From NCBI GenBank assembly GCA_949358305.1, contig OX442314.1, positions 6,262,001-6,326,000 on the forward strand: a stretch of 64,000 nucleotides of DNA, written 5' to 3'. Each line of letters starts with the position of its first letter. Positions within the stretch are counted from its first letter, which is position 1. The notes under the pieces were generated by a model. It did not search any database, was not told where the DNA came from, and saw nothing but the letters and a program-made list of their open reading frames with translations. Below, piece by piece: positions 1 through 62,120 of this stretch. The stretch comes from Strigamia acuminata. Lineage: Eukaryota. The translations under genes were made by a program, and so were the position numbers.

Positions 1-3000
1 GCGTGTTTAGTAATACGCGGATCAAATGGCAAAGGAACGTTTCTTCCCGTATTAAGAATCATCGGTGAACAATTTGTTGCCTCGGACTTAGCGGTGCGCA
101 TCGCAAAGGCAAAAGAATTTAAATATTTTGGCCAGTGGGAGTGAATGTCCGAGTATAAAGCTAACATCATTTTTAAAGTCCGGTTAGCCCGCTCTGTAAT
201 ATTAGCGGCAGCGTGATATGGGCTAATGTGAGCAATATCTACGTGATTCTTTTGACAAAAATCATTAAATATTGTCGACACAAATTGTTTGCCGTTGTCG
301 GAGATTATCTTTTTTGGATATCCCCAACGGTGGAAAACTTCGCTCATTTTATTAACGATGCATTCACTTGATGCAGTCGCTAGTGGGAAGACTTCAATCC
401 ATTTTGTACAATTATCAATGATTACTAAAATCCATTTTAATTGTGAACGACCGGCTGGTTTTGGTCCCATCAGGTCAATGCTTACAGTCTCCCACGGGTT
501 GGTCATGTTGTGAGGTGTATAGCTTGCCCGATGCTTTTGGTGTTGACTAGGTTTGTATTGTTGGCAATGAGTGCAACTGCGAACGTAGTTTCGAGTGTCT
601 TTGCTCATTCTAGGCCAGAAATACATCTGTTTTGCTCTATCTAGGGTTTTGCTCATGCCGGCATGTCCTGTAAGTGGGTGGCCATGGCATGCGAATAATG
701 CACGTCTCACGAGTGAGCGTGGAATTACCGCCTTAAACCCGTTGCCAGAGTCGTTTAACTCTTCCTCATCGGTCGGAGCAAAATAAATTAGCATAACACC
801 TTTATTTTCTTCCGGTTCGTCGAGAGTGTAGCCACGAATCGCATTTAACCAATGTTTATCCGTGATACGATTTTTTAATTTTTCGTCTCCTTTTAGGTAA
901 ACAAGGATTTTACTACATGCTGGATCTTTAAGTTGCGCTTCGATAATTTCGTCTCGCGTCGGCGGAACTACTTTTATGATATCTGTTAGCGCAGTGTGTA
1001 CATTTTCGTGATTACAATTGTGGACATCTATATGTCTGCAATTTTCTCTCGTACATCCTTCTTCCTCCCCCTTTTCTCCAGAATCATGAAATCTAATTGG
1101 ATTATATGATTCTGAGAAAAAATCTAAACTAAGGCCAACATTTGTAAGAAAATGTTTGCGCTCAGTTTCCGTCACTTGTAAAGATGCACACCTGTTTCCA
1201 TTCCAAGTTGGATAGAAATGGGTGATTTCCTCTGGTTCGATATAATCATAATCCGGAGTGTCTAGTGCAGACAGTGGAGCGCGTGACAATGCGTCCGCTA
1301 CTTGGTTCATTGCACCGCGTCTAAAAATAATTTTAAACGCGCCACATTGTATTTTGACGGCCCAACGACCAAACCTTCCCGATGGTTCCGGCGTACTCAT
1401 CAACCAGCTAAGGGCCTTAGCATCGGACTCGAGAGTGAAAGTCGTGTATTCAATATATGGGCGAAATCTTTCGATTGCCCATACAACGGCCAAACACTCC
1501 AATTCCGGCGTAGAATACCTTACTTCGGCCCCGTGTAACACTCGACTGGCGTACGCGACTGCTTTCGGGACCATTATTAATTTCTGTTTCTTTTCACAGA
1601 ATAATTCTACGTCTTGACAGAGTACTGCACCTAAGCCTGAATGAGAAGCATCTGTCAAAATGACAAAAGGCTTATTCATATCTGGCATGTGGAGAAGGGC
1701 TTGGTCCTTGTCACACAAGATGTCTTTGATAGTTTCGAATGCAGTTGTTTGTGGTTCATCCCACACAAACTTTGCTTGATCATGCATAATATTGGTCAAT
1801 GGACGAGCAATATTTGCGATGTTAGGAATGAATTTTCGGAAAAAATTCGCAAGTCCTACAAATCTTTGTATGTCTTTAGAACAAGTTGGTTTGGGAAAAT
1901 TCCTTACAGCCGAGACTTTGTCAGGGTCTGGAAGAAGAGATCCCTCCGAAATTAAGTGGCCTAAAAATCGTAATGATGTTCGACCAAATTTTGACTTGTC
2001 TTTATTGATAGTTAGATTCGCGGCATCCAACTTCTCAAGTACGTCTTTAATATGTAATAAATGATTTTCCCATGTGTCGGAAAAAATAATTATATCGTCT
2101 AAATAAACTAGAGCATGTTTATATAGAGAGTCACCCAATACGGTAGTCATGAGGTGTTGAAAAGAACTAGGTGCATTACAAAGACCAAATGGCAATCTCT
2201 TGAATTGAAATTTGCCTTTTGGGGTGTAAAAAGCAGTTTTGCTCTTATCCTCCTCCTCCATTTCCATTTGATGATAACCTTTAGTTAAATCAATGGATGT
2301 AAAGTACTTGGCCTGATTAGTATGGTGAATTAATAGGTCAATACTTGGCATTTGAATTGCATCAACTTCTGTGATCGCATTCAACCAGCGGTAGTCGATA
2401 CATAATCGATACTTCCCGCCGGGTTTAGCCACTATGACGGGGTGACTTATATAGGGGCCGGTGGCAGGTTCGATTAACCCATCGGCCTCTAATTCCTCGA
2501 CCAATTCCGTCATAATCGCCTTCTTGGCCGGATTGTACATTCTATACGGCTGGTGTTTCCAAGTAGCACCAGGTTTAAACTTGATGCTGTGCTTGGCAAC
2601 CTTCGTACAGCCCAATTGGTCTCGAAATACGTTTTTTAATTGCAAAAGAACGTTTACGAGTAACTGTTTTTCTTCCGCCGAACTGTTGCAGCCTTTCACG
2701 AGTTTTTCTGCCCAGTCCGGTGAAGTGGGAGTTCCTTCACCTTGGAGACCCAAAGTCTTAATGCTTGCTAAGCAACAATTAAGTTCAGTGGTCTCGTACG
2801 GGGCTGTCCATCCGGGCATGTCATCACAGGTGAACACTGCTCGTTTTGGATTTAAGTTAACTCCAGTTCTACGCATAAAGTTGTGGCCTAAAATCAACCC
2901 ACATACATTCTTGTGTAGAATTATGAAGGTCATAGGTGTAACTCTCTTTTTATCGGCCCATTTGACACAAAGACAAACTTGACCGATAGGTCGGTGATCT

Positions 3001-3596
3001 ATTCCGACTGCGCAGACACGCATTCCTCGGGGACATTCTTGTATGAATTCCACCGGAATTTCTGTGTTTGAAAGGAGTTGTACTCCAATAAAACATTGGG
3101 TGGCTCCAGAATCCATTAATGCGTTGTAATCTAAACCTCCGATTTGGATATTCATACGCGGATCATCTTTGCCACCATTAATTAATTTGCTATTGCAAAG
3201 TTTGCCAAGAAATACTTTTCGTTCTTTCTTGTTCCATTTTTCAAGTTTAAGAATTTTCCTTAACTTGAAAACTTTGGGTACAAGCGGTTTTTTTGGTGCA
3301 TACCAGCTTCCACTAAAAATACTCAAATTTTCTAGTTGGTCTGTCATGACTTTTAAATTTTCATCGACACCGCCAGTAGAGCTGCTAGTCTTTCGACAGA
3401 CAGGTACTGCTTCGTAAGAAATGACCAACGATGGTGGTTTATTCTTCGAATCATCGACATAAGGTACTGTGAGATGACTAGGCTTATGTCTTAATTTAAA
3501 TTCATCTTTTCGTGAAAATAAATCATTTGACAATTCCGAGAGGGGAAACAACTCTTTAAGCGGGGGTTGGGCAACTTGAACAACCCCCTGAATCAG
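1..3596 (-). CDS. pol: Pol polyprotein, partial (runs off window)
   Basis: Same sequence as 12435-16030. Confidence 0.92.
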   Translation of the reverse strand, partial: MIQGVVQVAQPPLKELFPLSELSNDLFSRKDEFKLRHKPSHLTVPYVDDSKNKPPSLVISYEAVPVCRKTSSSTGGVDENLKVMTDQLENLSIFSGSWYAPKKPLVPKVFKLRKILKLEKWNKKERKVFLGKLCNSKLINGGKDDPRMNIQIGGLDYNALMDSGATQCFIGVQLLSNTEIPVEFIQECPRGMRVCAVGIDHRPIGQVCLCVKWADKKRVTPMTFIILHKNVCGLILGHNFMRRTGVNLNPKRAVFTCDDMPGWTAPYETTELNCCLASIKTLGLQGEGTPTSPDWAEKLVKGCNSSAEEKQLLVNVLLQLKNVFRDQLGCTKVAKHSIKFKPGATWKHQPYRMYNPAKKAIMTELVEELEADGLIEPATGPYISHPVIVAKPGGKYRLCIDYRWLNAITEVDAIQMPSIDLLIHHTNQAKYFTSIDLTKGYHQMEMEEEDKSKTAFYTPKGKFQFKRLPFGLCNAPSSFQHLMTTVLGDSLYKHALVYLDDIIIFSDTWENHLLHIKDVLEKLDAANLTINKDKSKFGRTSLRFLGHLISEGSLLPDPDKVSAVRNFPKPTCSKDIQRFVGLANFFRKFIPNIANIARPLTNIMHDQAKFVWDEPQTTAFETIKDILCDKDQALLHMPDMNKPFVILTDASHSGLGAVLCQDVELFCEKKQKLIMVPKAVAYASRVLHGAEVRYSTPELECLAVVWAIERFRPYIEYTTFTLESDAKALSWLMSTPEPSGRFGRWAVKIQCGAFKIIFRRGAMNQVADALSRAPLSALDTPDYDYIEPEEITHFYPTWNGNRCASLQVTETERKHFLTNVGLSLDFFSESYNPIRFHDSGEKGEEEGCTRENCRHIDVHNCNHENVHTALTDIIKVVPPTRDEIIEAQLKDPACSKILVYLKGDEKLKNRITDKHWLNAIRGYTLDEPEENKGVMLIYFAPTDEEELNDSGNGFKAVIPRSLVRRALFACHGHPLTGHAGMSKTLDRAKQMYFWPRMSKDTRNYVRSCTHCQQYKPSQHQKHRASYTPHNMTNPWETVSIDLMGPKPAGRSQLKWILVIIDNCTKWIEVFPLATASSECIVNKMSEVFHRWGYPKKIISDNGKQFVSTIFNDFCQKNHVDIAHISPYHAAANITERANRTLKMMLALYSDIHSHWPKYLNSFAFAMRTAKSEATNCSPMILNTGRNVPLPFDPRITKH

Positions 3597-5650
3597 TTTT
3601 TTGTCTCGTCGGGAGTGACTGACTCAGTGGCTGCTGGTAAATGCTTAATTAACAGGTCAACCATGTTTTTCTGGAAGTCAGTAAATTTGGAGTCTAAAGT
3701 TTCTGACGTAACCCAATTTTGTTTGGGTCGTTTAAACTCGGGGTTGGGAGCAGAGTGGTTAAATCTTTTATTTGCATTTAACGAGTCTGATTTCCCTGCT
3801 AATTTTTTGGCAAGAGCGGGACATTCTCTTTTAAAATGTCCAGGCTCGTGACAGAAAAAGCATTTTCCAGTAGTCTTTTCATACTGGGCGGCAAATAATC
3901 GCTCCATTGAACCATCGTCAGTTGAGTCGTCATTCTCCGACTCGTCTTCATTTTCAACTTCATCTTGTGTTTGCGTTAAACGTAGTGAAGTTTTAGATGG
4001 AAAAATCTTAGATTTTTCGTGAAGTTTGGGAGTAGGATGATTCTCTCGATTATCATACTCCAATTTTGCTGCAAGTTGAGAACTTTCAAACTTAGAGCAA
4101 TTTGCTCCTACATATTGTAGAATGTCATCTACTGTAAAGTTACCATACATTCCTTGTGTACATAACGCCGTGAAACTTTCTTGAGTTAAATTGTCGAATA
4201 ATTGCGCACGTCCAGTTTTATCACCTGGCGGCACTTCACCTTGTTCTTGCGTATAACGCAGAAGAAAACTATAAAGTGACTCGTCGGCTCGTTGTTTTAC
4301 ATTAAGAAGTCGCCTTTCTCTTGTAAGTGGAACGAGATCGAAGCAATCGAGAAAAGAGGCTTCGAAAGTTCGCCAACTGTTAAAAGTATGGCGTTGCTTA
4401 TGGAACCAACGTTGTGCATGGCCTAATAGTCGTCCAGGTACAGCAGTGTGTACCATGTCGTCTAAAGGGATGCCTTTCCCGAGTGCGACAGCTTTGACGA
4501 TTTCAAGGAATCGCGCAACCTCTGTCTGTTTCCCGTCAAAAATAGGAATCTCGATTCCTTTCCCAAAATTCTGACTGGGATTACTCGGGCTTCGGATTTG
4601 ACCAACTAAACCCTGAATAATTTGTTTTACATTTTCGTCCGACAAATTAGAAGCAGAGTTCGAATTGGGTGTAGACCGACTTTCTTGGTCTCTGGGTGGC
4701 GGATTTGGCTCTCCTTGAAAATTTTGATGTCTATCAGGTGGCGGTGGAGAATGCGAATTATTTCGTCGGTGGAAATTATTGTTATAATTTCCCCCTCTAC
4801 CAGCGTGAGATTCGTCACTACTCGAGTTAGGATCGGAGTCACGAGGATCACCAGGAGCTCCGGGAAATCGTTGATTTCTCGGCGGAGCTCGTCCACCTTG
4901 AGAGCGGGAATTTCTATAATTCCTAAAATCTCCATCAGATTGGGTGTGAGATTGAAAATTTTGATAATTTTCATTTCTCCCCCTTGGTTGGACCGACAGA
5001 TTAGTTCGAGGCTGTGGAACTCTGAAAGAATCATTCAAATTCCCAGTGGGAGCGGGTAAAATATTATTTACAGCCGTCGTACTTGGTAAATTTCGGGAAA
5101 TTGGCGCAGAAATATTTCCTTGTCCGGAATTTCCCATTCTTTCGGCCGAATTCGATCGCCAAGAACTAGTTGGTAACTGAATCGAAGGTTGAACAGATAG
5201 TGAAGAATTTAACTGCCCATTGTCGTCACGAGCAACATTCATTCGCCATCCAGGCAATTGCTGGTAGCGATATGTGGCCGGCGAACGAGGGCCAGTTCGA
5301 TCTACAGAAACACTTCGTTCGTTGGTTACAACTACATCGGGAGTAATTACACGATTTCTCTCGTGATGATTATTCGCCGTGTATTGTTGAGCTTCACACA
5401 AAGAGGAAAACTGCGTCACTTCCAATTGGTAATGGCGACAGTAAACTTCTAAATCATGTGGGACTGATAGTGGATCCGTTCGAGAACTACCTGGGTTGGA
5501 AACGTCTCTAGGAACATTTTCTTCCCCCTGGCTTTCTAGATCAGACTCCACAATTCCTCTTGGTGTTTCACACATACCACCACGTCGTCGTGCTCCACGA
5601 TTTCCTCGTGTTCCACGAACTCTTACAGGTCTACGGGCCATAATACTCAA
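3593..5650 (-). CDS. gag: Gag of element A (first ATG at 5641)
   Basis: Low-complexity N-half, capsid-like IPIFDG..AQRWF..W..FE segment, knuckle CFFCHEPGHFKREC. Confidence 0.92.
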   Translation of the reverse strand: MSIMARRPVRVRGTRGNRGARRRGGMCETPRGIVESDLESQGEENVPRDVSNPGSSRTDPLSVPHDLEVYCRHYQLEVTQFSSLCEAQQYTANNHHERNRVITPDVVVTNERSVSVDRTGPRSPATYRYQQLPGWRMNVARDDNGQLNSSLSVQPSIQLPTSSWRSNSAERMGNSGQGNISAPISRNLPSTTAVNNILPAPTGNLNDSFRVPQPRTNLSVQPRGRNENYQNFQSHTQSDGDFRNYRNSRSQGGRAPPRNQRFPGAPGDPRDSDPNSSSDESHAGRGGNYNNNFHRRNNSHSPPPPDRHQNFQGEPNPPPRDQESRSTPNSNSASNLSDENVKQIIQGLVGQIRSPSNPSQNFGKGIEIPIFDGKQTEVARFLEIVKAVALGKGIPLDDMVHTAVPGRLLGHAQRWFHKQRHTFNSWRTFEASFLDCFDLVPLTRERRLLNVKQRADESLYSFLLRYTQEQGEVPPGDKTGRAQLFDNLTQESFTALCTQGMYGNFTVDDILQYVGANCSKFESSQLAAKLEYDNRENHPTPKLHEKSKIFPSKTSLRLTQTQDEVENEDESENDDSTDDGSMERLFAAQYEKTTGKCFFCHEPGHFKRECPALAKKLAGKSDSLNANKRFNHSAPNPEFKRPKQNWVTSETLDSKFTDFQKNMVDLLIKHLPAATESVTPDETKN

Positions 5651-6499
5651 AGAAATACACGTACAACAAGAAAAAATAAGATTTTAACTGAACTAGCGTA
5701 AATGTAACACGCTTAATATTAAACTAAGAAATAATTTGAAAAAATACAACCTTAGCTGCTGAAACTGAAGTGGCTTCGGGAAAGAACTGTCCTGTTGCGT
5801 GGTCAAGAATGGTCCAAACGGGCACTGGTCACAACGGCACAACTGGATGGTCGCACTGTCGAAAAGCAAGTGTGGCTGAATATTGGTTGTCAAACTAGCT
5901 TCCGGAAAATCTCCTTTGTCAAGACAGTCTGCTGTGATTGGCGATGTTGAAAAATTCCTGATAATTTCTAACCCGAAATTCTCAAAAATGTCACATCTGG
6001 ATGACCTACTCTGAGCTGCATCGTGAGTGGCTCACTTTGTCACATTCTTTACCTTGTCAGGGATTAAAAATCATAATTCCTAACATTGACAGAACAATAG
6101 AAAAACTGGTCAAGTTTTCAACCAGTAAAATAAAATATTTTAACTTTTTATTTTTCAGTCAGCAGAATTTCTAGTCAAATTCGTTTTTTGATCGAAATTC
6201 AAGGTTTCGAAATTTTCCAGAATATAGCCGAATATTCTGGGAAACTCAATAAAATCATAATAGATTTTTCGTAAGAGATTCGGAATTATAATGAGTTTTT
6301 CAAAATAATCCAAAAATTCGAATTCAGATATTTCCAAAAGATAATGAGAATTTTTTGAAAACAAATGGATATTTCACAGTAAATTTATAGAGAAAAATCG
6401 GAAATTTTCTAATTATAATATCTATATAAAATAATCAAGAAAATTCATTTTTTCAATTTTACACTTGATCACAGAGTTCACTTCAATAAAATGCAACCT

Positions 6500-6517
6500 A
6501 TCTCGGTAGAACCTCCA
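6500..6517 (-). promoter_or_regulatory. Primer-binding site, tRNA-Gln
   Basis: Plus strand ATCTCGGTAGAACCTCCA matches the 3' 18 nt (with CCA) of metazoan tRNA-Gln as I recall it; 2 nt from LTR end. Confidence 0.88.
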
Positions 6518-6519
6518 CG

Positions 6520-8110
6520 TGTGACGATTACCTTCTGGAGATAGCAATTGCTAAACTAAAGTGTGAACTATCTGTGTGAAAATGTAAAATATGCAAACCT
6601 GATGTTTTCTCAAAACATATAACATTTATTCCGGTTTGAACCTTATATAAATACTATGCCTACAAGTGGCTAAAATGACGATAAGTTAAACTATACAGTT
6701 ATTTGGCAAAAGCCCTGAAATAATATCATTTGAAGGCTTCAGTCAGGCAATAAGAATTTGTAACGGTCTTATTGCTGTGACGTAAAAGATGTCATCTATG
6801 AATGGCTTTGGTTTCTAAATGGTCCGGGGTTTGGTTCTAAAAAGGCGTGTAAATGGTTAGGCTGGGTGGGTTATATCCGAGAGGTGCGGTTGACTTTTCT
6901 GTATCGTCACACACATCGCATCGCAGATAATTATTGTAATCAATAATTATCGCGAGATGTAACAATGTGAGAATAAATAGTCATATTAATTCTATGGAAT
7001 TAATCATGATATTTTAGAGTCACAAACTTAACTTAAACTGTGAAAATAAGTAAAATATATTAAAATAGCGCCGAGCTATTTTTTGCCCCGAGTGCAATCA
7101 ACATCTAAGTTAGACTTAAATGTTCCGTCAAACCAATAACGAATTGAATCGAAATATCTCGCAGGAAAGGTTATCCATCGCCGGGAAATTACTCCACTCG
7201 GTCCTGGCTGGCGGGAGAGTAACCGGGAAATTACTCCGCGTCGATTACTCTGATAATGCGTCTGTGAAATATAAATACTCCACTCTAGATTCTACATTAC
7301 CAATGCGTCTGTGAATTTTACTCCACTCTAGATTCTGCACTCTACAACGGAATGTTGGCATGAAGCTGGAGGGAGTGCGTCTGTGGGTTGTACCCCACTC
7401 TAGATACTACACTTAAATGTGTCTGTGAATTACTCACTCTAGTTACTACATTTCTACAACGGAATGTTGGCATGAAGAGGCGGGCAGTGTGTCTGTGAGT
7501 CTTCTACCCACTCTAGATACTTACACTAAATACAAAGTATTTCTACAACGGATTGTCGGAACGCAGAGAAGTATAATATGTGCTCAAGTAATATCAGTAT
7601 CAAACAAAAACAGAACAAGAGCGAGCTATATCCGTTTTGCAGGGGGATATATACTCGGTGAGGAGAATAGCTGTTCAGTGATCCAATGGGATCACTGGGC
7701 AGTCAAATCCATCCAATCCCAGATCATAGGAAGTGGATACTCAGGACATAGTCTTCTACTAGGTCCACTACAGGAACTGGATACGCAGGACACATTTTGG
7801 ATTAAGTCCCTTTGACTATAATCCAAAAGGAGTCCAACTCACAGTGGGTGATGGGGGGTGACTTCACCAGGTGTAGAGTTTGCACATAATTCAATAGAAT
7901 TATGTGACAAATAAATCAACTAGTTTTTAAACATCCAAAAGTATTTAAAAGTGTCTAAAGTTGCAGTGGAATAAAATATAAATAGTAATTTATATTTTAT
8001 TCACTCAAAAATTGTCGAAATTTGAATTTACCGCTAAAACGCATCAGCGCCATCTATTGGTGAAGTAATCGTCCTATACTAACAAAGTGTATGACAGTGT
8101 AACCGTCACA
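6520..8110 (-). repeat. LTR of element A (1591 bp), shared between adjacent units
   Basis: Inverted termini TGTGACGATTAC...GTAACCGTCACA; PBS on one side, PPT on the other. Confidence 0.93.
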
Positions 8111-8120
8111 AGTCCCCCTT
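8111..8120 (-). promoter_or_regulatory. Polypurine tract (copy at 20545-20554)
   Basis: Minus strand AAGGGGGACT directly before LTR start TGTGACG. Confidence 0.8.
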
Positions 8121-8772
8121 AAATATATGTTAATACCTGTATTAACATACTATTTATTCCGAATATCTTGAGGATCAAGACCACACTGTCATCTATGGAA
8201 CTGGAGCTGTAATCCTTGGTAAGTAAAAACCTTTATTTTATATCTTAATAGTATAAATAAAGAGTATTTCTTAATCAAATGCTTCAAAAAATATTTATTA
8301 GGGTTATAAAACTTTCAATTATCAATAATAACTTCCATCTCTCTTTACAGGTGGACTTACAACTGCATCAAGAAAAAGGCGATAACTTAAACTAACATCA
8401 AACTCTTGTACCAAACAAATGATTAATAAAATTTAACAATTATTTTCACAAAACTTAACTTCTCACTGGAAATATAATGATTTGCAAAATAACACTTTAC
8501 ACGTTAAAATTCAAGTATTAAAATTAGTATTCATATAAACAAACTCACATTGACTCGTAATCAAAATTTTAACAGAATGGTTAATTTAAATATTAAAGAT
8601 CTTTGAATTATTCACAAAAAAAATGGCATAAAATACACCTAAACCTGACTAAATCTTTGTTTCATCTCGGGTCAAGCAATGGAGATGGAGAAAATGGACT
8701 CGTTACTTCTGGTCTTGCCTTGAAAAGGGAAAATATCGGGAAAGTAACGGATCCCGACATCGTTGACGCTTT

Positions 8773-10440
8773 CTAGTCCAACTCTTCATCCTCAATAAAT
8801 CCTTCCATGGATGTAACAACTTCCGAGACGGCTGCGGGTGGAGAATTAAGTTGAATAGTTACCAATTCCGGTACTATATCTGGCTCAACGTCATGGGCCA
8901 GTGGGTTCAGGAGCATTCTGTGTTGTTCCTCGGTGAATACTTCCAGGGGATCAGGCCCTCCTAACGGAATGGTGTTAGCGCTGGTTGGCTCGGAAAAAAC
9001 CAAGTGATGGTCGGGTAAGCCGGAGTGCCATCCCTCACGAATCAACGGGTGTGCTGCTGCTGAGACCTGTTGCAAAATCTTACACCAAATAAAAGAGCGA
9101 GTTTGAAAAGATTCCGGCCGGGATGGATGAAAAATCCATTGGATCACGGCCAGTGGCACGCTCAAATCTGGAATTCGGTCGTTTGAAATCGACATGCTAA
9201 TACGCTTAGCTGCTTCCAATAAAATTGGGAAATAATGTTCCACTTCTGCCTTCGTTTGTTCCGTGAGTGACATGTCTGGTCTCGGCATATATGGGTGGAC
9301 CAGTAAAATAACCGGTTCAGCGGCGTTGTTTACTTCGGGGAGCGGAATAGTCGCTACAATCATGTTGTTAGTCGATGTTCCCTCTGGAGAAGCGGCGGCT
9401 TTTGGACCAGACTCAGAGGCAACCGGCGGAGAATCCGACGCAATAACTGACGTTGGTTCGTTCGTTGGGAGTTTTTCCGCCGAGACAACCGGAGTTCCAT
9501 CAATCGCAGGGGTGGGAGTTTCCGGCTCGCGTTGTGGCTCCGTAAATCCTCCTCGTGGAGTCGAGGTGCTGGACATTTGCGCCGGGTCTACATAAATAGC
9601 CTGCTCCGGGCCCTGGTGGATGAGGCCACATTCGCGACACATCGCCCAATTGCGTGCTGTCGGCGTACTTAGCCCCTTGACGATAAATGGAAGAATTTCT
9701 TCATTCCACATGCTGGATATGGCAACGCGTTTACCACCGTGACAGTTCACGCAGACTACGGCGTGAATGCCGGATAACAAGGACGACAACCATCCGCATC
9801 CTGCGCACAATGGGCAGAACATAAGTTTCGACTTTGGCATGATGTTAGTCCCCAAGGCGGCAGCTTCCATATCTCGAAATACGTGTTCTCTTCGCTGTTT
9901 CCGGTAACTTGGCAAATTTAGCTCCGATATCGAGCGAGCCTGCGATGTTGGGCGGGTCAGCGCTTCGGATGAAGATGCCAACGTGGACTTGGTGGGTCCT
10001 TTGGGCTTGCCGGTTTTGCCTCGACTAGCGGTATCGCGAGGATTTCGTGGTCGGGCAAACTGCCTGCTGGTGGACTGAGGTGGAGCTTCTTCAACCGATT
10101 CTTCTTCTTGTGAGAAGTCATCTTGGCGTCGCCTCCTTGAAGCAGAACGGGAGTATTGTGACGAGTCGTCAGAAAAATCCCAATTCGGAGTCTCGTGGGG
10201 CGCATCATAGGTTACGACACGCTGAATAGCTTGACGGCCTCTGGAAGGACGCGAGTCGTTCGGACTGACGCCCATGGCGGTCCGAATCCGTGGCGGTACG
10301 AGATCCGGGTTATCACGAGCCCAGTTGGCGACGAGCTCGGGGTCAGAGGAGGGATTAACAAAGCGATAATCCGTCTCTTCCGACTCTTCTGGATCCCAGT
10401 GCACGTATTGTCGCTTGCTAGCGCGACCTCGGCGACTCAT
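8773..10440 (-). CDS. ORF3 of element A, 555 aa, Cys-rich accessory protein of unknown function (not Env-like)
   Basis: Long ATG ORF between pol and PPT; CPLCAGCGW..CVNC..CREC domain shared with ORF3 of element B; acceptor-like tract 5 nt before ATG. Confidence 0.88.
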   Translation of the reverse strand: MSRRGRASKRQYVHWDPEESEETDYRFVNPSSDPELVANWARDNPDLVPPRIRTAMGVSPNDSRPSRGRQAIQRVVTYDAPHETPNWDFSDDSSQYSRSASRRRRQDDFSQEEESVEEAPPQSTSRQFARPRNPRDTASRGKTGKPKGPTKSTLASSSEALTRPTSQARSISELNLPSYRKQRREHVFRDMEAAALGTNIMPKSKLMFCPLCAGCGWLSSLLSGIHAVVCVNCHGGKRVAISSMWNEEILPFIVKGLSTPTARNWAMCRECGLIHQGPEQAIYVDPAQMSSTSTPRGGFTEPQREPETPTPAIDGTPVVSAEKLPTNEPTSVIASDSPPVASESGPKAAASPEGTSTNNMIVATIPLPEVNNAAEPVILLVHPYMPRPDMSLTEQTKAEVEHYFPILLEAAKRISMSISNDRIPDLSVPLAVIQWIFHPSRPESFQTRSFIWCKILQQVSAAAHPLIREGWHSGLPDHHLVFSEPTSANTIPLGGPDPLEVFTEEQHRMLLNPLAHDVEPDIVPELVTIQLNSPPAAVSEVVTSMEGFIEDEELD

Positions 10441-11749
10441 TGTGTCTTCAAAAAGAAATAAATTTTATTTGAGAACATGAATCAACCGTCGGAAATTAAT
10501 TTAATTTCAAATTAAATTAATTGTCGAACAACAACTGGATTAATTTCATAATTAATTCTTAAGTTCCCTTGTTAGCGTGTTTCCTCCATTTTGTCGAATA
10601 ATTATTAAGATTAATAATTATTCTCGACTTGGCATATAATTTCATTTTATCGTTTAAAACAATATCGCTGATAAAATATTCAAATTAGTGTTTATTTAAT
10701 GAAATAAACCTAATTTTTGTATCTACACGACATAATAACTAAAAAACATATAAAAATATTAAAAAAAAAAATATTTTTGTAAGTGTTTTTTAGCATCCGA
10801 CAATAGTCATTTTACATGGTTTTAATTGTACGAATAATTCCACAATTCGTCCGAGTAAATAATTTACTACCGACATCTGGTGGCGTTTGCCCCTATCATA
10901 CACGTGGCTTGTTAACACATGTCTGCTCACCAATTTCCAAGGAACTTAAGAGATATTTTATCTTTCATAAAATAAACACTTACTAACTAGGTGTAGTCCT
11001 AGAAGGGTATACTTGGCTAGTTTAATGTCTAGCTTCACGTATTTGCGAGGGCTGCTCGGTTCCGGCGATGTTGGCCGATAAAAACGTTGTGCGGCGCGTG
11101 CGAATTCTAAGTCCGCCGTAATGAACGCTTAACCAAAATAAATGTTGTCAATTAATGTCAAAATATTATAAATTTTGACAAAATATTGCTTAAATATTTA
11201 CCGGGAATTCACTTAGTGAGTTCGTGAAAGGCTTACTCGCGATTTGTCCACGAGATGGTTTCGATAATCAGCGTCGTGTCGATAATTTCTGAATTTGAAC
11301 TGATATTCGTCAAATGAAAAAATCAGTAAAATAAACGATAAGTGTTCAAAATCATCTAGATTTTAACTCACTAAATTTCAGCGAAAATCCGTTAAAGCGT
11401 CGAAGGGTCGAGAATAATCCTTGATTTCAGTCCAGTACAAAACTTGGCGAACAAGTGAGTGATAATCTCAAACCAGGGGTTAAGGGGAGTTTCGAGGAGT
11501 AATTTGATTGGTTTGTAATTACTCATCTCGAAGTTTCTATTAACCCAAAGGGGGAAACACAGTTTCAAGTAAATGTTTACACGTAGATTAATTTAAATAT
11601 AATCGGCCGTGTAAAAATAACTCAAACATTTGTTAGATTTTATTCATCCCAAAAAAAAATGTTTTTAACTAATAAAATTTAACAATCCTTCGTGAATATG
11701 ATTGGAAATATTTATTTTAAAATAAAATATTTTCAATATATTGTGTTTT

Positions 11750-14700
11750 TTAACCCAACTTGACTTGTTTTAAACAATTTATGAGTTGTACAAAATCGGT
11801 CACGTATTTTGTGTTCGGCTTGGGTCTACGTTTAGACTGTCGAACGGGAGATGGAAATCTTTTCCTCTTTTTAGATGGATTTTGAGGAGTTTCGTCCTCT
11901 TTAGAAGAAATCTGAGAAGTTTCCTCCTCTTTCTCTTCAACTAAATCCTCTGTTTCCATGGACACAGGTTCATTTATTAATTCTGAAGAATTAATAACTT
12001 GACCTGCCATCCAATCTGGAGTCGGGTGTGACTCGTTGGTACCGACTTTCTGATCTAATGTCCATTCCTCAATCGGGTAACTTGGGATATAAGGCATTAA
12101 ATCCTGTATGTTGATCGCTTTGGCTTTCGTGTTATCAGAAAGCTTCCGTAGTGTGTAGGAACCTCCGCCGAGAACAGCCGTAATTTCCCAAGGTCCATCA
12201 CGTTTCTCAGCGAATCCTGCCGAAATCCCTTTATCTTTATTCGATAAAATATGTGTGGCTTTCCACACGAGATCTCCTTTGGCAAATTGACAAATATAAT
12301 ATTTGTCTTTATGTAGTCGATCATGCTTTTCGTAATTCGATTGAATTTTCCGATGCATTTCGCTGTGTGCACGTCTAATTACGTCTAAAATGCTGTAGAC
12401 GTAGGCTTCGGGATTTTCTTTGTCGAATTTGATGGCGTGTTTAGTAATACGCGGATCAAATGGCAAAGGAACGTTTCTTCCCGTATTAAGAATCATCGGT
12501 GAACAATTTGTTGCCTCGGACTTAGCGGTGCGCATCGCAAAGGCAAAAGAATTTAAATATTTTGGCCAGTGGGAGTGAATGTCCGAGTATAAAGCTAACA
12601 TCATTTTTAAAGTCCGGTTAGCCCGCTCTGTAATATTAGCGGCAGCGTGATATGGGCTAATGTGAGCAATATCTACGTGATTCTTTTGACAAAAATCATT
12701 AAATATTGTCGACACAAATTGTTTGCCGTTGTCGGAGATTATCTTTTTTGGATATCCCCAACGGTGGAAAACTTCGCTCATTTTATTAACGATGCATTCA
12801 CTTGATGCAGTCGCTAGTGGGAAGACTTCAATCCATTTTGTACAATTATCAATGATTACTAAAATCCATTTTAATTGTGAACGACCGGCTGGTTTTGGTC
12901 CCATCAGGTCAATGCTTACAGTCTCCCACGGGTTGGTCATGTTGTGAGGTGTATAGCTTGCCCGATGCTTTTGGTGTTGACTAGGTTTGTATTGTTGGCA
13001 ATGAGTGCAACTGCGAACGTAGTTTCGAGTGTCTTTGCTCATTCTAGGCCAGAAATACATCTGTTTTGCTCTATCTAGGGTTTTGCTCATGCCGGCATGT
13101 CCTGTAAGTGGGTGGCCATGGCATGCGAATAATGCACGTCTCACGAGTGAGCGTGGAATTACCGCCTTAAACCCGTTGCCAGAGTCGTTTAACTCTTCCT
13201 CATCGGTCGGAGCAAAATAAATTAGCATAACACCTTTATTTTCTTCCGGTTCGTCGAGAGTGTAGCCACGAATCGCATTTAACCAATGTTTATCCGTGAT
13301 ACGATTTTTTAATTTTTCGTCTCCTTTTAGGTAAACAAGGATTTTACTACATGCTGGATCTTTAAGTTGCGCTTCGATAATTTCGTCTCGCGTCGGCGGA
13401 ACTACTTTTATGATATCTGTTAGCGCAGTGTGTACATTTTCGTGATTACAATTGTGGACATCTATATGTCTGCAATTTTCTCTCGTACATCCTTCTTCCT
13501 CCCCCTTTTCTCCAGAATCATGAAATCTAATTGGATTATATGATTCTGAGAAAAAATCTAAACTAAGGCCAACATTTGTAAGAAAATGTTTGCGCTCAGT
13601 TTCCGTCACTTGTAAAGATGCACACCTGTTTCCATTCCAAGTTGGATAGAAATGGGTGATTTCCTCTGGTTCGATATAATCATAATCCGGAGTGTCTAGT
13701 GCAGACAGTGGAGCGCGTGACAATGCGTCCGCTACTTGGTTCATTGCACCGCGTCTAAAAATAATTTTAAACGCGCCACATTGTATTTTGACGGCCCAAC
13801 GACCAAACCTTCCCGATGGTTCCGGCGTACTCATCAACCAGCTAAGGGCCTTAGCATCGGACTCGAGAGTGAAAGTCGTGTATTCAATATATGGGCGAAA
13901 TCTTTCGATTGCCCATACAACGGCCAAACACTCCAATTCCGGCGTAGAATACCTTACTTCGGCCCCGTGTAACACTCGACTGGCGTACGCGACTGCTTTC
14001 GGGACCATTATTAATTTCTGTTTCTTTTCACAGAATAATTCTACGTCTTGACAGAGTACTGCACCTAAGCCTGAATGAGAAGCATCTGTCAAAATGACAA
14101 AAGGCTTATTCATATCTGGCATGTGGAGAAGGGCTTGGTCCTTGTCACACAAGATGTCTTTGATAGTTTCGAATGCAGTTGTTTGTGGTTCATCCCACAC
14201 AAACTTTGCTTGATCATGCATAATATTGGTCAATGGACGAGCAATATTTGCGATGTTAGGAATGAATTTTCGGAAAAAATTCGCAAGTCCTACAAATCTT
14301 TGTATGTCTTTAGAACAAGTTGGTTTGGGAAAATTCCTTACAGCCGAGACTTTGTCAGGGTCTGGAAGAAGAGATCCCTCCGAAATTAAGTGGCCTAAAA
14401 ATCGTAATGATGTTCGACCAAATTTTGACTTGTCTTTATTGATAGTTAGATTCGCGGCATCCAACTTCTCAAGTACGTCTTTAATATGTAATAAATGATT
14501 TTCCCATGTGTCGGAAAAAATAATTATATCGTCTAAATAAACTAGAGCATGTTTATATAGAGAGTCACCCAATACGGTAGTCATGAGGTGTTGAAAAGAA
14601 CTAGGTGCATTACAAAGACCAAATGGCAATCTCTTGAATTGAAATTTGCCTTTTGGGGTGTAAAAAGCAGTTTTGCTCTTATCCTCCTCCTCCATTTCCA

Positions 14701-16030
14701 TTTGATGATAACCTTTAGTTAAATCAATGGATGTAAAGTACTTGGCCTGATTAGTATGGTGAATTAATAGGTCAATACTTGGCATTTGAATTGCATCAAC
14801 TTCTGTGATCGCATTCAACCAGCGGTAGTCGATACATAATCGATACTTCCCGCCGGGTTTAGCCACTATGACGGGGTGACTTATATAGGGGCCGGTGGCA
14901 GGTTCGATTAACCCATCGGCCTCTAATTCCTCGACCAATTCCGTCATAATCGCCTTCTTGGCCGGATTGTACATTCTATACGGCTGGTGTTTCCAAGTAG
15001 CACCAGGTTTAAACTTGATGCTGTGCTTGGCAACCTTCGTACAGCCCAATTGGTCTCGAAATACGTTTTTTAATTGCAAAAGAACGTTTACGAGTAACTG
15101 TTTTTCTTCCGCCGAACTGTTGCAGCCTTTCACGAGTTTTTCTGCCCAGTCCGGTGAAGTGGGAGTTCCTTCACCTTGGAGACCCAAAGTCTTAATGCTT
15201 GCTAAGCAACAATTAAGTTCAGTGGTCTCGTACGGGGCTGTCCATCCGGGCATGTCATCACAGGTGAACACTGCTCGTTTTGGATTTAAGTTAACTCCAG
15301 TTCTACGCATAAAGTTGTGGCCTAAAATCAACCCACATACATTCTTGTGTAGAATTATGAAGGTCATAGGTGTAACTCTCTTTTTATCGGCCCATTTGAC
15401 ACAAAGACAAACTTGACCGATAGGTCGGTGATCTATTCCGACTGCGCAGACACGCATTCCTCGGGGACATTCTTGTATGAATTCCACCGGAATTTCTGTG
15501 TTTGAAAGGAGTTGTACTCCAATAAAACATTGGGTGGCTCCAGAATCCATTAATGCGTTGTAATCTAAACCTCCGATTTGGATATTCATACGCGGATCAT
15601 CTTTGCCACCATTAATTAATTTGCTATTGCAAAGTTTGCCAAGAAATACTTTTCGTTCTTTCTTGTTCCATTTTTCAAGTTTAAGAATTTTCCTTAACTT
15701 GAAAACTTTGGGTACAAGCGGTTTTTTTGGTGCATACCAGCTTCCACTAAAAATACTCAAATTTTCTAGTTGGTCTGTCATGACTTTTAAATTTTCATCG
15801 ACACCGCCAGTAGAGCTGCTAGTCTTTCGACAGACAGGTACTGCTTCGTAAGAAATGACCAACGATGGTGGTTTATTCTTCGAATCATCGACATAAGGTA
15901 CTGTGAGATGACTAGGCTTATGTCTTAATTTAAATTCATCTTTTCGTGAAAATAAATCATTTGACAATTCCGAGAGGGGAAACAACTCTTTAAGCGGGGG
16001 TTGGGCAACTTGAACAACCCCCTGAATCAG
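11750..16030 (-). CDS. pol: Pol (protease, RT, RNase H, integrase), expressed by -1 frameshift from gag
   Basis: LMDSGA, YLDD, TDAS..ELECLA, H-H-C-C, IDLMGP/SDNG/ERANR, GPW; frame open back to the slippery site. Confidence 0.97.
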   Translation of the reverse strand: MIQGVVQVAQPPLKELFPLSELSNDLFSRKDEFKLRHKPSHLTVPYVDDSKNKPPSLVISYEAVPVCRKTSSSTGGVDENLKVMTDQLENLSIFSGSWYAPKKPLVPKVFKLRKILKLEKWNKKERKVFLGKLCNSKLINGGKDDPRMNIQIGGLDYNALMDSGATQCFIGVQLLSNTEIPVEFIQECPRGMRVCAVGIDHRPIGQVCLCVKWADKKRVTPMTFIILHKNVCGLILGHNFMRRTGVNLNPKRAVFTCDDMPGWTAPYETTELNCCLASIKTLGLQGEGTPTSPDWAEKLVKGCNSSAEEKQLLVNVLLQLKNVFRDQLGCTKVAKHSIKFKPGATWKHQPYRMYNPAKKAIMTELVEELEADGLIEPATGPYISHPVIVAKPGGKYRLCIDYRWLNAITEVDAIQMPSIDLLIHHTNQAKYFTSIDLTKGYHQMEMEEEDKSKTAFYTPKGKFQFKRLPFGLCNAPSSFQHLMTTVLGDSLYKHALVYLDDIIIFSDTWENHLLHIKDVLEKLDAANLTINKDKSKFGRTSLRFLGHLISEGSLLPDPDKVSAVRNFPKPTCSKDIQRFVGLANFFRKFIPNIANIARPLTNIMHDQAKFVWDEPQTTAFETIKDILCDKDQALLHMPDMNKPFVILTDASHSGLGAVLCQDVELFCEKKQKLIMVPKAVAYASRVLHGAEVRYSTPELECLAVVWAIERFRPYIEYTTFTLESDAKALSWLMSTPEPSGRFGRWAVKIQCGAFKIIFRRGAMNQVADALSRAPLSALDTPDYDYIEPEEITHFYPTWNGNRCASLQVTETERKHFLTNVGLSLDFFSESYNPIRFHDSGEKGEEEGCTRENCRHIDVHNCNHENVHTALTDIIKVVPPTRDEIIEAQLKDPACSKILVYLKGDEKLKNRITDKHWLNAIRGYTLDEPEENKGVMLIYFAPTDEEELNDSGNGFKAVIPRSLVRRALFACHGHPLTGHAGMSKTLDRAKQMYFWPRMSKDTRNYVRSCTHCQQYKPSQHQKHRASYTPHNMTNPWETVSIDLMGPKPAGRSQLKWILVIIDNCTKWIEVFPLATASSECIVNKMSEVFHRWGYPKKIISDNGKQFVSTIFNDFCQKNHVDIAHISPYHAAANITERANRTLKMMLALYSDIHSHWPKYLNSFAFAMRTAKSEATNCSPMILNTGRNVPLPFDPRITKHAIKFDKENPEAYVYSILDVIRRAHSEMHRKIQSNYEKHDRLHKDKYYICQFAKGDLVWKATHILSNKDKGISAGFAEKRDGPWEITAVLGGGSYTLRKLSDNTKAKAINIQDLMPYIPSYPIEEWTLDQKVGTNESHPTPDWMAGQVINSSELINEPVSMETEDLVEEKEEETSQISSKEDETPQNPSKKRKRFPSPVRQSKRRPKPNTKYVTDFVQLINCLKQVKLG

Positions 16031-16036
16031 TTTTTT
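15996..16036 (-). promoter_or_regulatory. -1 ribosomal frameshift signal (copy at 3562-3602)
   Basis: A_AAA_AAC before gag TGA, 7-nt spacer, stem GGGGGTTG..CAACCCCC; -1 frame reads into pol. Confidence 0.88.
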
Positions 16037-18084
16037 GTCTCGTCGGGAGTGACTGACTCAGTGGCTGCTGGTAAATGCTTAATTAACAGGTCAACCATGT
16101 TTTTCTGGAAGTCAGTAAATTTGGAGTCTAAAGTTTCTGACGTAACCCAATTTTGTTTGGGTCGTTTAAACTCGGGGTTGGGAGCAGAGTGGTTAAATCT
16201 TTTATTTGCATTTAACGAGTCTGATTTCCCTGCTAATTTTTTGGCAAGAGCGGGACATTCTCTTTTAAAATGTCCAGGCTCGTGACAGAAAAAGCATTTT
16301 CCAGTAGTCTTTTCATACTGGGCGGCAAATAATCGCTCCATTGAACCATCGTCAGTTGAGTCGTCATTCTCCGACTCGTCTTCATTTTCAACTTCATCTT
16401 GTGTTTGCGTTAAACGTAGTGAAGTTTTAGATGGAAAAATCTTAGATTTTTCGTGAAGTTTGGGAGTAGGATGATTCTCTCGATTATCATACTCCAATTT
16501 TGCTGCAAGTTGAGAACTTTCAAACTTAGAGCAATTTGCTCCTACATATTGTAGAATGTCATCTACTGTAAAGTTACCATACATTCCTTGTGTACATAAC
16601 GCCGTGAAACTTTCTTGAGTTAAATTGTCGAATAATTGCGCACGTCCAGTTTTATCACCTGGCGGCACTTCACCTTGTTCTTGCGTATAACGCAGAAGAA
16701 AACTATAAAGTGACTCGTCGGCTCGTTGTTTTACATTAAGAAGTCGCCTTTCTCTTGTAAGTGGAACGAGATCGAAGCAATCGAGAAAAGAGGCTTCGAA
16801 AGTTCGCCAACTGTTAAAAGTATGGCGTTGCTTATGGAACCAACGTTGTGCATGGCCTAATAGTCGTCCAGGTACAGCAGTGTGTACCATGTCGTCTAAA
16901 GGGATGCCTTTCCCGAGTGCGACAGCTTTGACGATTTCAAGGAATCGCGCAACCTCTGTCTGTTTCCCGTCAAAAATAGGAATCTCGATTCCTTTCCCAA
17001 AATTCTGACTGGGATTACTCGGGCTTCGGATTTGACCAACTAAACCCTGAATAATTTGTTTTACATTTTCGTCCGACAAATTAGAAGCAGAGTTCGAATT
17101 GGGTGTAGACCGACTTTCTTGGTCTCTGGGTGGCGGATTTGGCTCTCCTTGAAAATTTTGATGTCTATCAGGTGGCGGTGGAGAATGCGAATTATTTCGT
17201 CGGTGGAAATTATTGTTATAATTTCCCCCTCTACCAGCGTGAGATTCGTCACTACTCGAGTTAGGATCGGAGTCACGAGGATCACCAGGAGCTCCGGGAA
17301 ATCGTTGATTTCTCGGCGGAGCTCGTCCACCTTGAGAGCGGGAATTTCTATAATTCCTAAAATCTCCATCAGATTGGGTGTGAGATTGAAAATTTTGATA
17401 ATTTTCATTTCTCCCCCTTGGTTGGACCGACAGATTAGTTCGAGGCTGTGGAACTCTGAAAGAATCATTCAAATTCCCAGTGGGAGCGGGTAAAATATTA
17501 TTTACAGCCGTCGTACTTGGTAAATTTCGGGAAATTGGCGCAGAAATATTTCCTTGTCCGGAATTTCCCATTCTTTCGGCCGAATTCGATCGCCAAGAAC
17601 TAGTTGGTAACTGAATCGAAGGTTGAACAGATAGTGAAGAATTTAACTGCCCATTGTCGTCACGAGCAACATTCATTCGCCATCCAGGCAATTGCTGGTA
17701 GCGATATGTGGCCGGCGAACGAGGGCCAGTTCGATCTACAGAAACACTTCGTTCGTTGGTTACAACTACATCGGGAGTAATTACACGATTTCTCTCGTGA
17801 TGATTATTCGCCGTGTATTGTTGAGCTTCACACAAAGAGGAAAACTGCGTCACTTCCAATTGGTAATGGCGACAGTAAACTTCTAAATCATGTGGGACTG
17901 ATAGTGGATCCGTTCGAGAACTACCTGGGTTGGAAACGTCTCTAGGAACATTTTCTTCCCCCTGGCTTTCTAGATCAGACTCCACAATTCCTCTTGGTGT
18001 TTCACACATACCACCACGTCGTCGTGCTCCACGATTTCCTCGTGTTCCACGAACTCTTACAGGTCTACGGGCCATAATACTCAA
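16027..18084 (-). CDS. gag: Gag of element A (first ATG at 18075)
   Basis: Same translation as 3593-5650. Confidence 0.92.
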   Translation of the reverse strand: MSIMARRPVRVRGTRGNRGARRRGGMCETPRGIVESDLESQGEENVPRDVSNPGSSRTDPLSVPHDLEVYCRHYQLEVTQFSSLCEAQQYTANNHHERNRVITPDVVVTNERSVSVDRTGPRSPATYRYQQLPGWRMNVARDDNGQLNSSLSVQPSIQLPTSSWRSNSAERMGNSGQGNISAPISRNLPSTTAVNNILPAPTGNLNDSFRVPQPRTNLSVQPRGRNENYQNFQSHTQSDGDFRNYRNSRSQGGRAPPRNQRFPGAPGDPRDSDPNSSSDESHAGRGGNYNNNFHRRNNSHSPPPPDRHQNFQGEPNPPPRDQESRSTPNSNSASNLSDENVKQIIQGLVGQIRSPSNPSQNFGKGIEIPIFDGKQTEVARFLEIVKAVALGKGIPLDDMVHTAVPGRLLGHAQRWFHKQRHTFNSWRTFEASFLDCFDLVPLTRERRLLNVKQRADESLYSFLLRYTQEQGEVPPGDKTGRAQLFDNLTQESFTALCTQGMYGNFTVDDILQYVGANCSKFESSQLAAKLEYDNRENHPTPKLHEKSKIFPSKTSLRLTQTQDEVENEDESENDDSTDDGSMERLFAAQYEKTTGKCFFCHEPGHFKRECPALAKKLAGKSDSLNANKRFNHSAPNPEFKRPKQNWVTSETLDSKFTDFQKNMVDLLIKHLPAATESVTPDETKN

Positions 18085-18933: not shown

Positions 18934-18951
18934 ATCTCGGTAGAACCTCCA
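18934..18951 (-). promoter_or_regulatory. Primer-binding site, tRNA-Gln
   Basis: Same 18-mer next to LTR 18954. Confidence 0.88.
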
Positions 18952-18953
18952 CG

Positions 18954-20544
18954 TGTGACGATTACCTTCTGGAGATAGCAATTGCTAAACTAAAGTGTGA
19001 ACTATCTGTGTGAAAATGTAAAATATGCAAACCTGATGTTTTCTCAAAACATATAACATTTATTCCGGTTTGAACCTTATATAAATACTATGCCTACAAG
19101 TGGCTAAAATGACGATAAGTTAAACTATACAGTTATTTGGCAAAAGCCCTGAAATAATATCATTTGAAGGCTTCAGTCAGGCAATAAGAATTTGTAACGG
19201 TCTTATTGCTGTGACGTAAAAGATGTCATCTATGAATGGCTTTGGTTTCTAAATGGTCCGGGGTTTGGTTCTAAAAAGGCGTGTAAATGGTTAGGCTGGG
19301 TGGGTTATATCCGAGAGGTGCGGTTGACTTTTCTGTATCGTCACACACATCGCATCGCAGATAATTATTGTAATCAATAATTATCGCGAGATGTAACAAT
19401 GTGAGAATAAATAGTCATATTAATTCTATGGAATTAATCATGATATTTTAGAGTCACAAACTTAACTTAAACTGTGAAAATAAGTAAAATATATTAAAAT
19501 AGCGCCGAGCTATTTTTTGCCCCGAGTGCAATCAACATCTAAGTTAGACTTAAATGTTCCGTCAAACCAATAACGAATTGAATCGAAATATCTCGCAGGA
19601 AAGGTTATCCATCGCCGGGAAATTACTCCACTCGGTCCTGGCTGGCGGGAGAGTAACCGGGAAATTACTCCGCGTCGATTACTCTGATAATGCGTCTGTG
19701 AAATATAAATACTCCACTCTAGATTCTACATTACCAATGCGTCTGTGAATTTTACTCCACTCTAGATTCTGCACTCTACAACGGAATGTTGGCATGAAGC
19801 TGGAGGGAGTGCGTCTGTGGGTTGTACCCCACTCTAGATACTACACTTAAATGTGTCTGTGAATTACTCACTCTAGTTACTACATTTCTACAACGGAATG
19901 TTGGCATGAAGAGGCGGGCAGTGTGTCTGTGAGTCTTCTACCCACTCTAGATACTTACACTAAATACAAAGTATTTCTACAACGGATTGTCGGAACGCAG
20001 AGAAGTATAATATGTGCTCAAGTAATATCAGTATCAAACAAAAACAGAACAAGAGCGAGCTATATCCGTTTTGCAGGGGGATATATACTCGGTGAGGAGA
20101 ATAGCTGTTCAGTGATCCAATGGGATCACTGGGCAGTCAAATCCATCCAATCCCAGATCATAGGAAGTGGATACTCAGGACATAGTCTTCTACTAGGTCC
20201 ACTACAGGAACTGGATACGCAGGACACATTTTGGATTAAGTCCCTTTGACTATAATCCAAAAGGAGTCCAACTCACAGTGGGTGATGGGGGGTGACTTCA
20301 CCAGGTGTAGAGTTTGCACATAATTCAATAGAATTATGTGACAAATAAATCAACTAGTTTTTAAACATCCAAAAGTATTTAAAAGTGTCTAAAGTTGCAG
20401 TGGAATAAAATATAAATAGTAATTTATATTTTATTCACTCAAAAATTGTCGAAATTTGAATTTACCGCTAAAACGCATCAGCGCCATCTATTGGTGAAGT
20501 AATCGTCCTATACTAACAAAGTGTATGACAGTGTAACCGTCACA
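18954..20544 (-). repeat. LTR of element A (second copy)
   Basis: Copy of 6520-8110 at +12,434. Confidence 0.93.
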
Positions 20545-22708: not shown

Positions 22709-22734
22709 GAAACAAGCACAATCATACATTTTAC

Positions 22735-62114: not shown

Positions 62115-62120
62115 TTTTTT
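62080..62120 (-). promoter_or_regulatory. -1 frameshift signal of element B
   Basis: A_AAA_AAC before gag TAG, 7-nt spacer, stem GGGGGA..TCCCCC; -1 frame joins MDVD of pol. Confidence 0.88.

Follow-up and report, generated by a model that had tools for sequence, protein, structure and literature searches.

Element A, on the minus strand of the 64-kb window (the whole stretch of DNA analysed here), is a Ty3/Gypsy LTR retrotransposon in which gag is followed by protease, reverse transcriptase (RT), RNase H and integrase, and which has LTRs of the form TG...CA, a primer-binding site and a polypurine tract. A sister element, B, occupies the end of the window, and each of the two carries a third reading frame, ORF3.

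6500..6517 (-): primer-binding site of element A, starting with TGG two bases past the LTR
6520..8110 (-): LTR of element A, 1591 nt, TGTGACG...CGTCACA, common to two tandem copies
8113..8120 (-): polypurine tract preceding the LTR of element A; element B has a similar tract
8773..10440 (-): ORF3 of element A, 555 aa, with a candidate acceptor (by consensus alone) immediately before the ATG
9583..9894 (-): seven-cysteine domain of ORF3, in common with ORF3 of element B
11750..16057 (-): pol of element A, with protease, RT, RNase H and integrase in Ty3/Gypsy order
16027..18075 (-): gag of element A, with one CCHC knuckle
18954..20544 (-): second, identical copy of the LTR of element A, with the same array (units at 19685-19962)
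52842-64000 (-): element B, sister to element A

Positions 1-9227 recur at 12435-21660 with 99.97% identity, and so copies of element A stand in tandem and have LTRs in common; the two LTRs are letter-identical. The tandem copies fill 1-21660, the first being broken off within ORF3 at 21660, and reflect either a very recent duplication or a duplicate in the assembly. In three of four sequencing runs the contig depth forms a plateau at ~6500-8110 that matches the LTR. The primer-binding site is presumably of the tRNA-Gln type. Elements A and B are 68.6% identical over 430 aa of RT-RNase H and come out as sisters, with a support of 0.994, in a tree built from 117 of 122 sequences (the other five had aligned over <=350 aa and were excluded); the nearest outside proteins are one at 47% and a protein of the centipede Strigamia that reaches 61% in the integrase. 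The host would be an animal and is probably an arthropod. A search of viral contigs with pol gave no match.

Elsewhere in the window are a frame of 640 codons encoding a MULE transposase and a RING finger (29621-31543, +) and amiloride-sensitive sodium channel genes with duplicated exons (34668-51177, +) and inverted pieces (22245-23846). Repeats at 25467-25893, 33418-34173, 32938-33251 and 44895-45069 comprise two inverted tracts of a 54-nt minisatellite, a repeat of 35 nt, and a pair of GC-rich 70-nt sequences that lie 105 nt apart.

The initial annotation had described five bulged hairpins on the minus strand of the element A LTR, and all five are found as written:

7485..7528 (-): unit 1, AGA-bulge hairpin; pairing with the downstream linker is predicted to outcompete it
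7415..7453 (-): unit 2, AGA-bulge hairpin, the weakest unit, with one A.A mismatch
7374..7413 (-): unit 3, AGA-bulge hairpin, from the RNAalifold fold and pairing count
7302..7341 (-): unit 4, AGA-bulge hairpin, from the RNAalifold fold and pairing count
7251..7302 (-): unit 5, AGA-bulge hairpin, the sole unit predicted to be completely folded in context

All ten stems that it quoted are present, among them the lower stems UAAUGU/GCAUUA, AGUGC/GCAUU, AGUGU/GCACU, AAAUGU/ACAUUU and UAGUGU/ACACUG and the upper stems GUGGA/UUCAC, GUGGG/CCCAC, GUGA/UCAC and GUGGGU/ACUCAC. Its plan of a unit (lower stem, internal loop, CU/AG, AGA bulge, upper stem, variable loop) stands overall, with the middle helix corrected to UCU/AGA in four of the five units and an A.A in unit 2. 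The core CUAGAGUG...CACAGAC occurs ten times in the 64 kb, five times in the array and five times at +12,434; the second array reported there is indeed present, and adds no evidence because that LTR is letter-identical. A relaxed, stem-aware scan of the 64-kb window found no AGA-bulge motif outside the two LTR arrays, nor did a covariance model built from these five units, run over the same window with filters off, reveal a further site (the next match has an E of 0.75). The Rfam search that had been proposed was run, and no family fits the array: there are seven matches up to E 10, none of which reaches its gathering score. A single-unit pattern matched 120 stretches in viral contigs, each of the 80 listed having one match only, and these are read as chance; a two-unit pattern gave zero matches in metagenomes. 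A literature search, which took in few subscription journals and no supplements, found no paper on the AGA-bulge hairpin motif or the ORF3 domain. A k-turn and hairpin-ribozyme loops were rejected for the units by eye, against consensus sequences, as was a sarcin-ricin loop, the third loop base varying among A, U and C.

The position of the array in the transcript can be estimated from signals in the LTR:

7647..7653 (-): TATA-like box, with ATTGG boxes at 7717 and 7687 and a putative start near 7620-7625
6625..6630 (-): AATAAA followed by a GT-rich run, with a putative end of R near 6605
6526..6534 (-): candidate splice donor AAG/GTAATC near the LTR end, by consensus match alone
54246, 54280 and 53030 (-): TATA, ATTGG and AATAAA of the element B LTR, in the same order as in A

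The TATA-like box that had been placed near 7650 is found at 7653, 125 nt before unit 1. In both elements the order is ATTGG, TATA, an interval of ~1.0-1.2 kb, AATAAA with a GT-rich run and a candidate donor. Because the array lies between the TATA box and the AATAAA, both of which are shared with element B, it is probably downstream of the start site and within R, which would extend from ~7620 to 6605 and place the array at ~+65 to +445. A conserved trait of LTRs is an AATAAA with GT-rich sequence, and fixing the borders of U3, R and U5 requires RNA data (PMC3601003, in part). The putative leader ahead of gag, 5642-7620 (-), is 1979 nt long and contains 21 ATGs. Both U3 regions also contain a strong AT-rich hairpin with an AATAAA (7968-8004 and 54456-54482, -; in A the AATAAA is at 8001, upstream of the TATA box), and this conserved hairpin could hide a poly(A) signal. 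Close to the start of both LTRs, AGATGGCG is conserved (8048-8055 and 54552-54559, -), which in our judgement resembles a CTCF site.

When the five units are aligned on their anchors, giving 13 pairs in each, the sense strand can form a pair in 64 of the 65 stem cells and the opposite strand in 57, which bears out the claim that changes between units are compensatory or G-U on the minus strand. Four of the 13 pairs are double-changed among units, every one of them including a G-U or U-G state; with a tool alignment instead of the anchor alignment, 63 of 64 cells pair and there are three double changes relative to the commonest pair. RNAalifold, applied as a check, recovered for the sense strand the fold initially described (-8.44 kcal/mol, covariation -0.92) and gave -3.52 kcal/mol and +0.32 on the opposite strand. 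The individual stability of the five units is unremarkable (z -0.29, -0.43, -1.52, -1.23 and -2.97).

How often such pairing arises by chance was assessed in several ways. Shuffled 3' letters matched the observed pairing in 16 of 500 trials (exact p 0.043). In neutral simulations with the fold held fixed (72 settings, 20,000 runs each), at most one break together with four double-changed pairs was reached in <=0.0008 of the runs per setting, and at most one break alone in 0.0006-0.17. When RNAalifold was left to choose the fold for each simulation (16 settings, 400 runs apiece), a covariation term equal to that observed was reached in 0-7 of 400 neutral runs at 69% transitions, the share seen in run X1 (43/62), and in 6-41 of 400 at 90% transitions, the other setting used; an equal total energy was reached in 0-152 of 400. 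In the runs with a fixed core, the covariation was matched in 0-4 of 400 (69% transitions) and 6-41 of 400 (90%). The covariation of the units is thus real but modest, with moderate significance, and there is support for a repeated RNA structure on the sense strand that has a fixed core.

Contigs from four runs on the same organism supplied other copies of the region 7240-7545; the stretch is present in three of six runs listed, from two studies and none of them an RNA run, and the best-matching run may be the window's own source. The contigs show 25 substitutions, nine of them within the 13-pair stems: G-U becomes A-U in three cases, G-C becomes A-U through two joint changes (at 7305 and 7338, in X6, from the same run and at the same depth), and four substitutions break pairs (7383, 7433, 7442 and 7449, in one contig each, a contig with 17 gaps apparently accounting for two). 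A further substitution, at 7301, falls in the extended stem of unit 5. G>A changes affect three of seven G-U guanines and one of 26 G-C guanines (p 0.023), the G-C case being listed with a partner change, and core sites are variable at 2 of 75 positions as against 22 of 203 other sites (p 0.021); since many variants may be misplaced sister units and so not independent, the support is weaker than these p values suggest.

The predicted folding of the surrounding RNA competes with the array. Forcing all five hairpins in context costs 17-30 kcal/mol relative to the predicted optimum (nine settings, 15-37 C); unit 5 alone is complete, the upper stems of units 2-4 are partly formed, and unit 1, like the lower stems of units 3 and 4, has a pairing probability of 0.00. 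In local predictions the hairpins of units 3-5 are optimal and those of units 1 and 2 are not: unit 1 favours its linker (-16.7 vs -9.7) and unit 2 another fold (-8.9 vs -4.8). Folds stronger than the array occur elsewhere in the LTR (z -5.5 at 8030 and -4.6 at 6990). Either the hairpins are held by a ligand or by non-standard pairs, or some of the units are idle.

The array is also larger than the five units initially described, and comprises several further structures:

7546..7558 (-): small hairpin 1, CGAC/GUUG, at the start of block 1
7528..7542 (-): collapsed unit 0, AAAUAC/GUAUUU, lower stem alone, with two pairs double-changed relative to unit 2
7457..7469 (-): small hairpin 2, CAAC/GUUG, at the start of block 2
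7345..7357 (-): small hairpin 3, CAAC/GUUG, at the start of block 3
7216..7251 (-): second-type bulged hairpin a, with a long stem, 4-nt bulge, GGAG/UUCC and UAAU loop
7181..7201 (-): second-type bulged hairpin b, with CCG/CGG, 3-nt bulge and GGAG/UUCC, its tip as in hairpin a

Three blocks can be recognised, each made up of a small hairpin (CAAC/GUUG, or CGAC/GUUG in block 1) followed by two units, and they have plainly arisen by duplication (81.5% over 146 nt). Unit 0, the first in block 1, is reduced to its lower stem, in which pairing is retained after the two double changes. The original reading of a repeated sense-strand structure therefore stands, as do its five units, and what it overlooked are the competing folds, the blocks with their small hairpins and collapsed unit, and the two downstream hairpins. 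Of these two, hairpin a is stable (-14.5 kcal/mol, z -3.54; 1 of 200 shuffles equally good) and hairpin b is not significant alone (z -0.67). Low-depth contigs in three of four runs contain a unit, identified by eye and with uncertain flanks, that has AGA after the middle stem and a tip of the second type; this combination suggests that AGA-bulge units and second-type hairpins are one family. Skips of 47, 75, 133 and 153 nt in contigs across the array indicate that copies of element A differ in number of units. A donor-like GTAAGT lies within unit 1, at 7524 (-).

Element B provides a second LTR and a second ORF3 for comparison:

55345-56862 (-): ORF3 of element B, 505 aa, with its domain at 55942-56256 and a candidate acceptor CAG/ATG
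53588-53682 and 53308-53400 (-): two copies of a 90-nt module in the element B LTR, 82% identical, predicted to form a multi-helix junction

The ORF3 domains of A and B are 36% identical over 105 aa (E 1e-20) and have seven conserved cysteines. ORF3 of element A is open across 555 codons and carries basic patches (5 in 12 residues) at its start and adjoining the cysteine domain; the highest 19-residue Kyte-Doolittle mean is 1.55 and the first 30 aa are hydrophilic, with no signal peptide, membrane helix or hydrophobic segment. It has no Pfam family, and on these grounds (no signal peptide, membrane helix or Pfam family) an env-bearing errantivirus was rejected. Below the Pfam cut-off the best match is Anti-TRAP (E 0.0013), in ORF3 of element B alone, and the PDB gave one match, at E 2.4. 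A pattern search for a leucine-rich export signal found none in ORF3 of A and one weak match in that of B. Relatives of ORF3 were sought among 7997 and 1651 candidates, in 350 and 52 stretches and in the Atlas, and none was found; these searches point weakly to a candidate orphan confined to elements A and B. An AlphaFold model of the domain, from two sequences, was unusable (pLDDT 45.9).

The LTR of element B has no match to the covariance model of the AGA-bulge units, and Rfam offers no fit to it (one match, E 2.6). Its duplicated module was not shown to covary (of 21 pairs none is double-changed and three are changed on a single side), and the z-scores of the two copies are -1.85 and 0.21. 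A small hairpin is repeated near 53793 and 53581 (-) in the same LTR, and the pol-ORF3 spacers of both elements contain a 27-nt motif in opposite orientation (A 11454-11479, B 57835-57861; E 0.004). That B keeps the ORF3 domain and has other modules suits, weakly, an element-specific ligand better than a shared host protein; an ORF3 without the AGA-bulge motif is also compatible with a ligand other than ORF3.

Taken as a whole, the array is a real feature and likely a selected RNA structure, with a putative ligand and role; that it functions as an RNA structure we hold to be highly probable. Fixed letters around the bulge, free loops and stems that are constrained only to pair would give it the look of a protein-binding RNA, a pattern familiar from TAR, the RRE and phage operators, and the many copies suggest several bound proteins. 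The chances that the ligand is encoded by the element itself appear about even, and ORF3, judged by its sequence, is a fair candidate. More specifically, and tentatively, the array may be a docking RNA for ORF3 with a role in export or stabilisation. Transcription would then start near 7620 and end near 6605, so that the array would stand at both ends of the genomic RNA, and ORF3 would be translated from a spliced RNA. Its cysteine domain and the flanking basic stretch would read the AG loop, CU/AG and AGA-bulge core, while the outer stems would just have to pair, and binding would draw the weak hairpins out of their competing folds. Multiple bound ORF3 molecules could bring in factors for export or stabilisation, much as Rex acts on the RxRE and as has been proposed for CERV in Cer1, and unspliced element A RNA would thereby leave the nucleus. 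Counting against an export role for unspliced RNA, an array in R is present on both spliced and unspliced RNA.

A Rex- or CERV-like role is our best guess, since the array would lie far from the cap, which argues against a Tat-like role, and before the candidate donor, which argues against psi. It remains a tentative choice, followed in decreasing order of probability by a host factor, Gag, a by-product or DNA site, a Tat-like activator and a ribozyme. A site for a host protein, whether an export factor, a germ-line transport adaptor of the Egalitarian/BicD or Staufen type, or a translation factor, is rather unlikely. The structural evidence would apply to it equally, and a leader of 1979 nt with 21 ATGs would need some translation aid; yet the motif is missing from element B, which has the same host, and there is neither an Rfam match nor an identified host-factor motif in the array. 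An export factor has a precedent in the constitutive transport element (CTE) of MPMV, which binds host NXF1 and sits in all viral mRNAs (PMC12789967, in part). The next reading, also unlikely, is a multi-copy packaging or dimerisation signal for Gag, in which RNA molecules could begin to pair at the UCUAGA palindrome found in four of the five units. In keeping with this are the repetition of weak, purine-bulged hairpins, a Gag with a CCHC knuckle, a flexible number of units and the presence of a 6-nt palindrome in the element B module as well; but half of the UCUAGA palindrome is paired inside the unit, and retroviral psi usually lies past the splice donor, whereas the array precedes the candidate donor and so would not set unspliced RNA apart.

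Placed just below Gag is the possibility that a hairpin was tandemly duplicated and homogenised by exchange between units, or that the array is one of DNA sites. The blocks are clear duplications, the array fold is not the predicted optimum, free-fold simulations match the covariation in up to 10% of runs, and the five CAGAC of the LTR, a sequence familiar as a Smad site, are all within units. Set against this are the core-fixed simulations, in which the core is conserved as expected of a DNA site, with matches in 0-4 of 400 runs (69% transitions) or 6-41 of 400 (90%), the bias of G-U pairs toward one strand and the survival of the unit 0 stem through two double changes. More doubtful is that ORF3 binds the nascent hairpins and releases a paused polymerase as Tat does. 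TAR starts at +1 and has a pyrimidine bulge and a fixed loop read by cyclin T1; here the loops are free, unit 1 would lie at ~+95 and the last unit end at ~+370, and the TAR-like label of the initial annotation fits least, the array being at ~+65 to +445 from the putative start. Neither a match to a TAR family nor a sequence link between ORF3 and Tat (Pfam and PDB searches) was found. In favour of a Tat-like role are the bulged hairpins in the putative R and the cysteines and basic stretches of ORF3; TAR too is located in R (PMC12789967, in part). Least probable by far is a self-cleaving ribozyme, as in retrozyme LTRs: the internal loops are conserved and ribozymes are known from LTR elements (PMC4918200, in part), but none of the seven Rfam matches up to E 10 is one, and cleavage in R would sever the genomic RNA at both ends.

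Among known systems, the Rex- or CERV-like reading draws on two. HTLV-1 has its RexRE in the 3' LTR, and Rex, made from spliced RNA, exports unspliced RNA (PMC12789967, in part). Element A would resemble it in its structured LTR RNA, a candidate element-encoded partner, a putative spliced RNA (donor and acceptor by consensus alone) and the proposed export of unspliced RNA; it differs in having a row of small separate hairpins in a Gypsy retrotransposon without env, and an ORF3 with a seven-cysteine domain, no export-signal match and no homology found. CERV of C. elegans Cer1 is a cysteine-loop protein of 517 aa from a spliced RNA that is required for export of Cer1 RNA (PMC10309623, in part), and ORF3 is likewise a third gene that is not env, of ~500 aa and with a cysteine-rich part. 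CERV has cysteines at C193, C195, C200 and C269 and exons shared with gag (PMC10309623, in part), whereas ORF3 has the spacing CxxCxGCG, CxxC, CxxC, the comparison being with the published description of CERV alone. The main text of the Cer1 paper, as searched for stem-loop, response element, cis-acting and RRE, contains none of these terms and names no RNA element (PMC10309623, in part). None of the tests applied makes the array and ORF3 a member of either system.

Other likenesses are more distant. TAR/Tat of HIV also has a bulged hairpin in R with a fixed core; element A would have five to seven hairpins from ~+95, with a purine bulge and free loops. The CTE of MPMV is likewise a structured RNA at the 3' end, in all the RNAs of the element (PMC12789967, in part), but it is one long stem-loop where the array has many short ones, and there is no Rfam or sequence match between the two. 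Ogre and Burro are Ty3/Gypsy elements with long LTRs and extra genes without known role (PMC6431247, in part), and the part of that source that was covered describes no repeated bulged hairpin or ORF3-type domain. Stem-loops have been noted in long R regions of LTR elements (PMC3601003, in part).

Should ORF3 not be the ligand, the array is still an RNA structure absent from Rfam, chiefly of specialist interest. Complex retroviruses are the textbook case of RNA response elements served by a dedicated protein. A more speculative possibility, less probable than the docking role itself, is an undescribed invertebrate Gypsy lineage with its own switch of this kind, in which ORF3 and family-specific RNA modules diverge together and binding flips the fold; if so, the AGA-bulge hairpins of A and the multi-helix modules of B would each respond solely to their own ORF3, within a kilobase-long R. 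CERV is the sole LTR-retrotransposon regulator that we found in print, with no RNA element named in the searched text. A covarying repeated motif beside a candidate-orphan third gene would thus offer a protein-RNA pair ready for testing, with element B, in the same window, as a specificity control.
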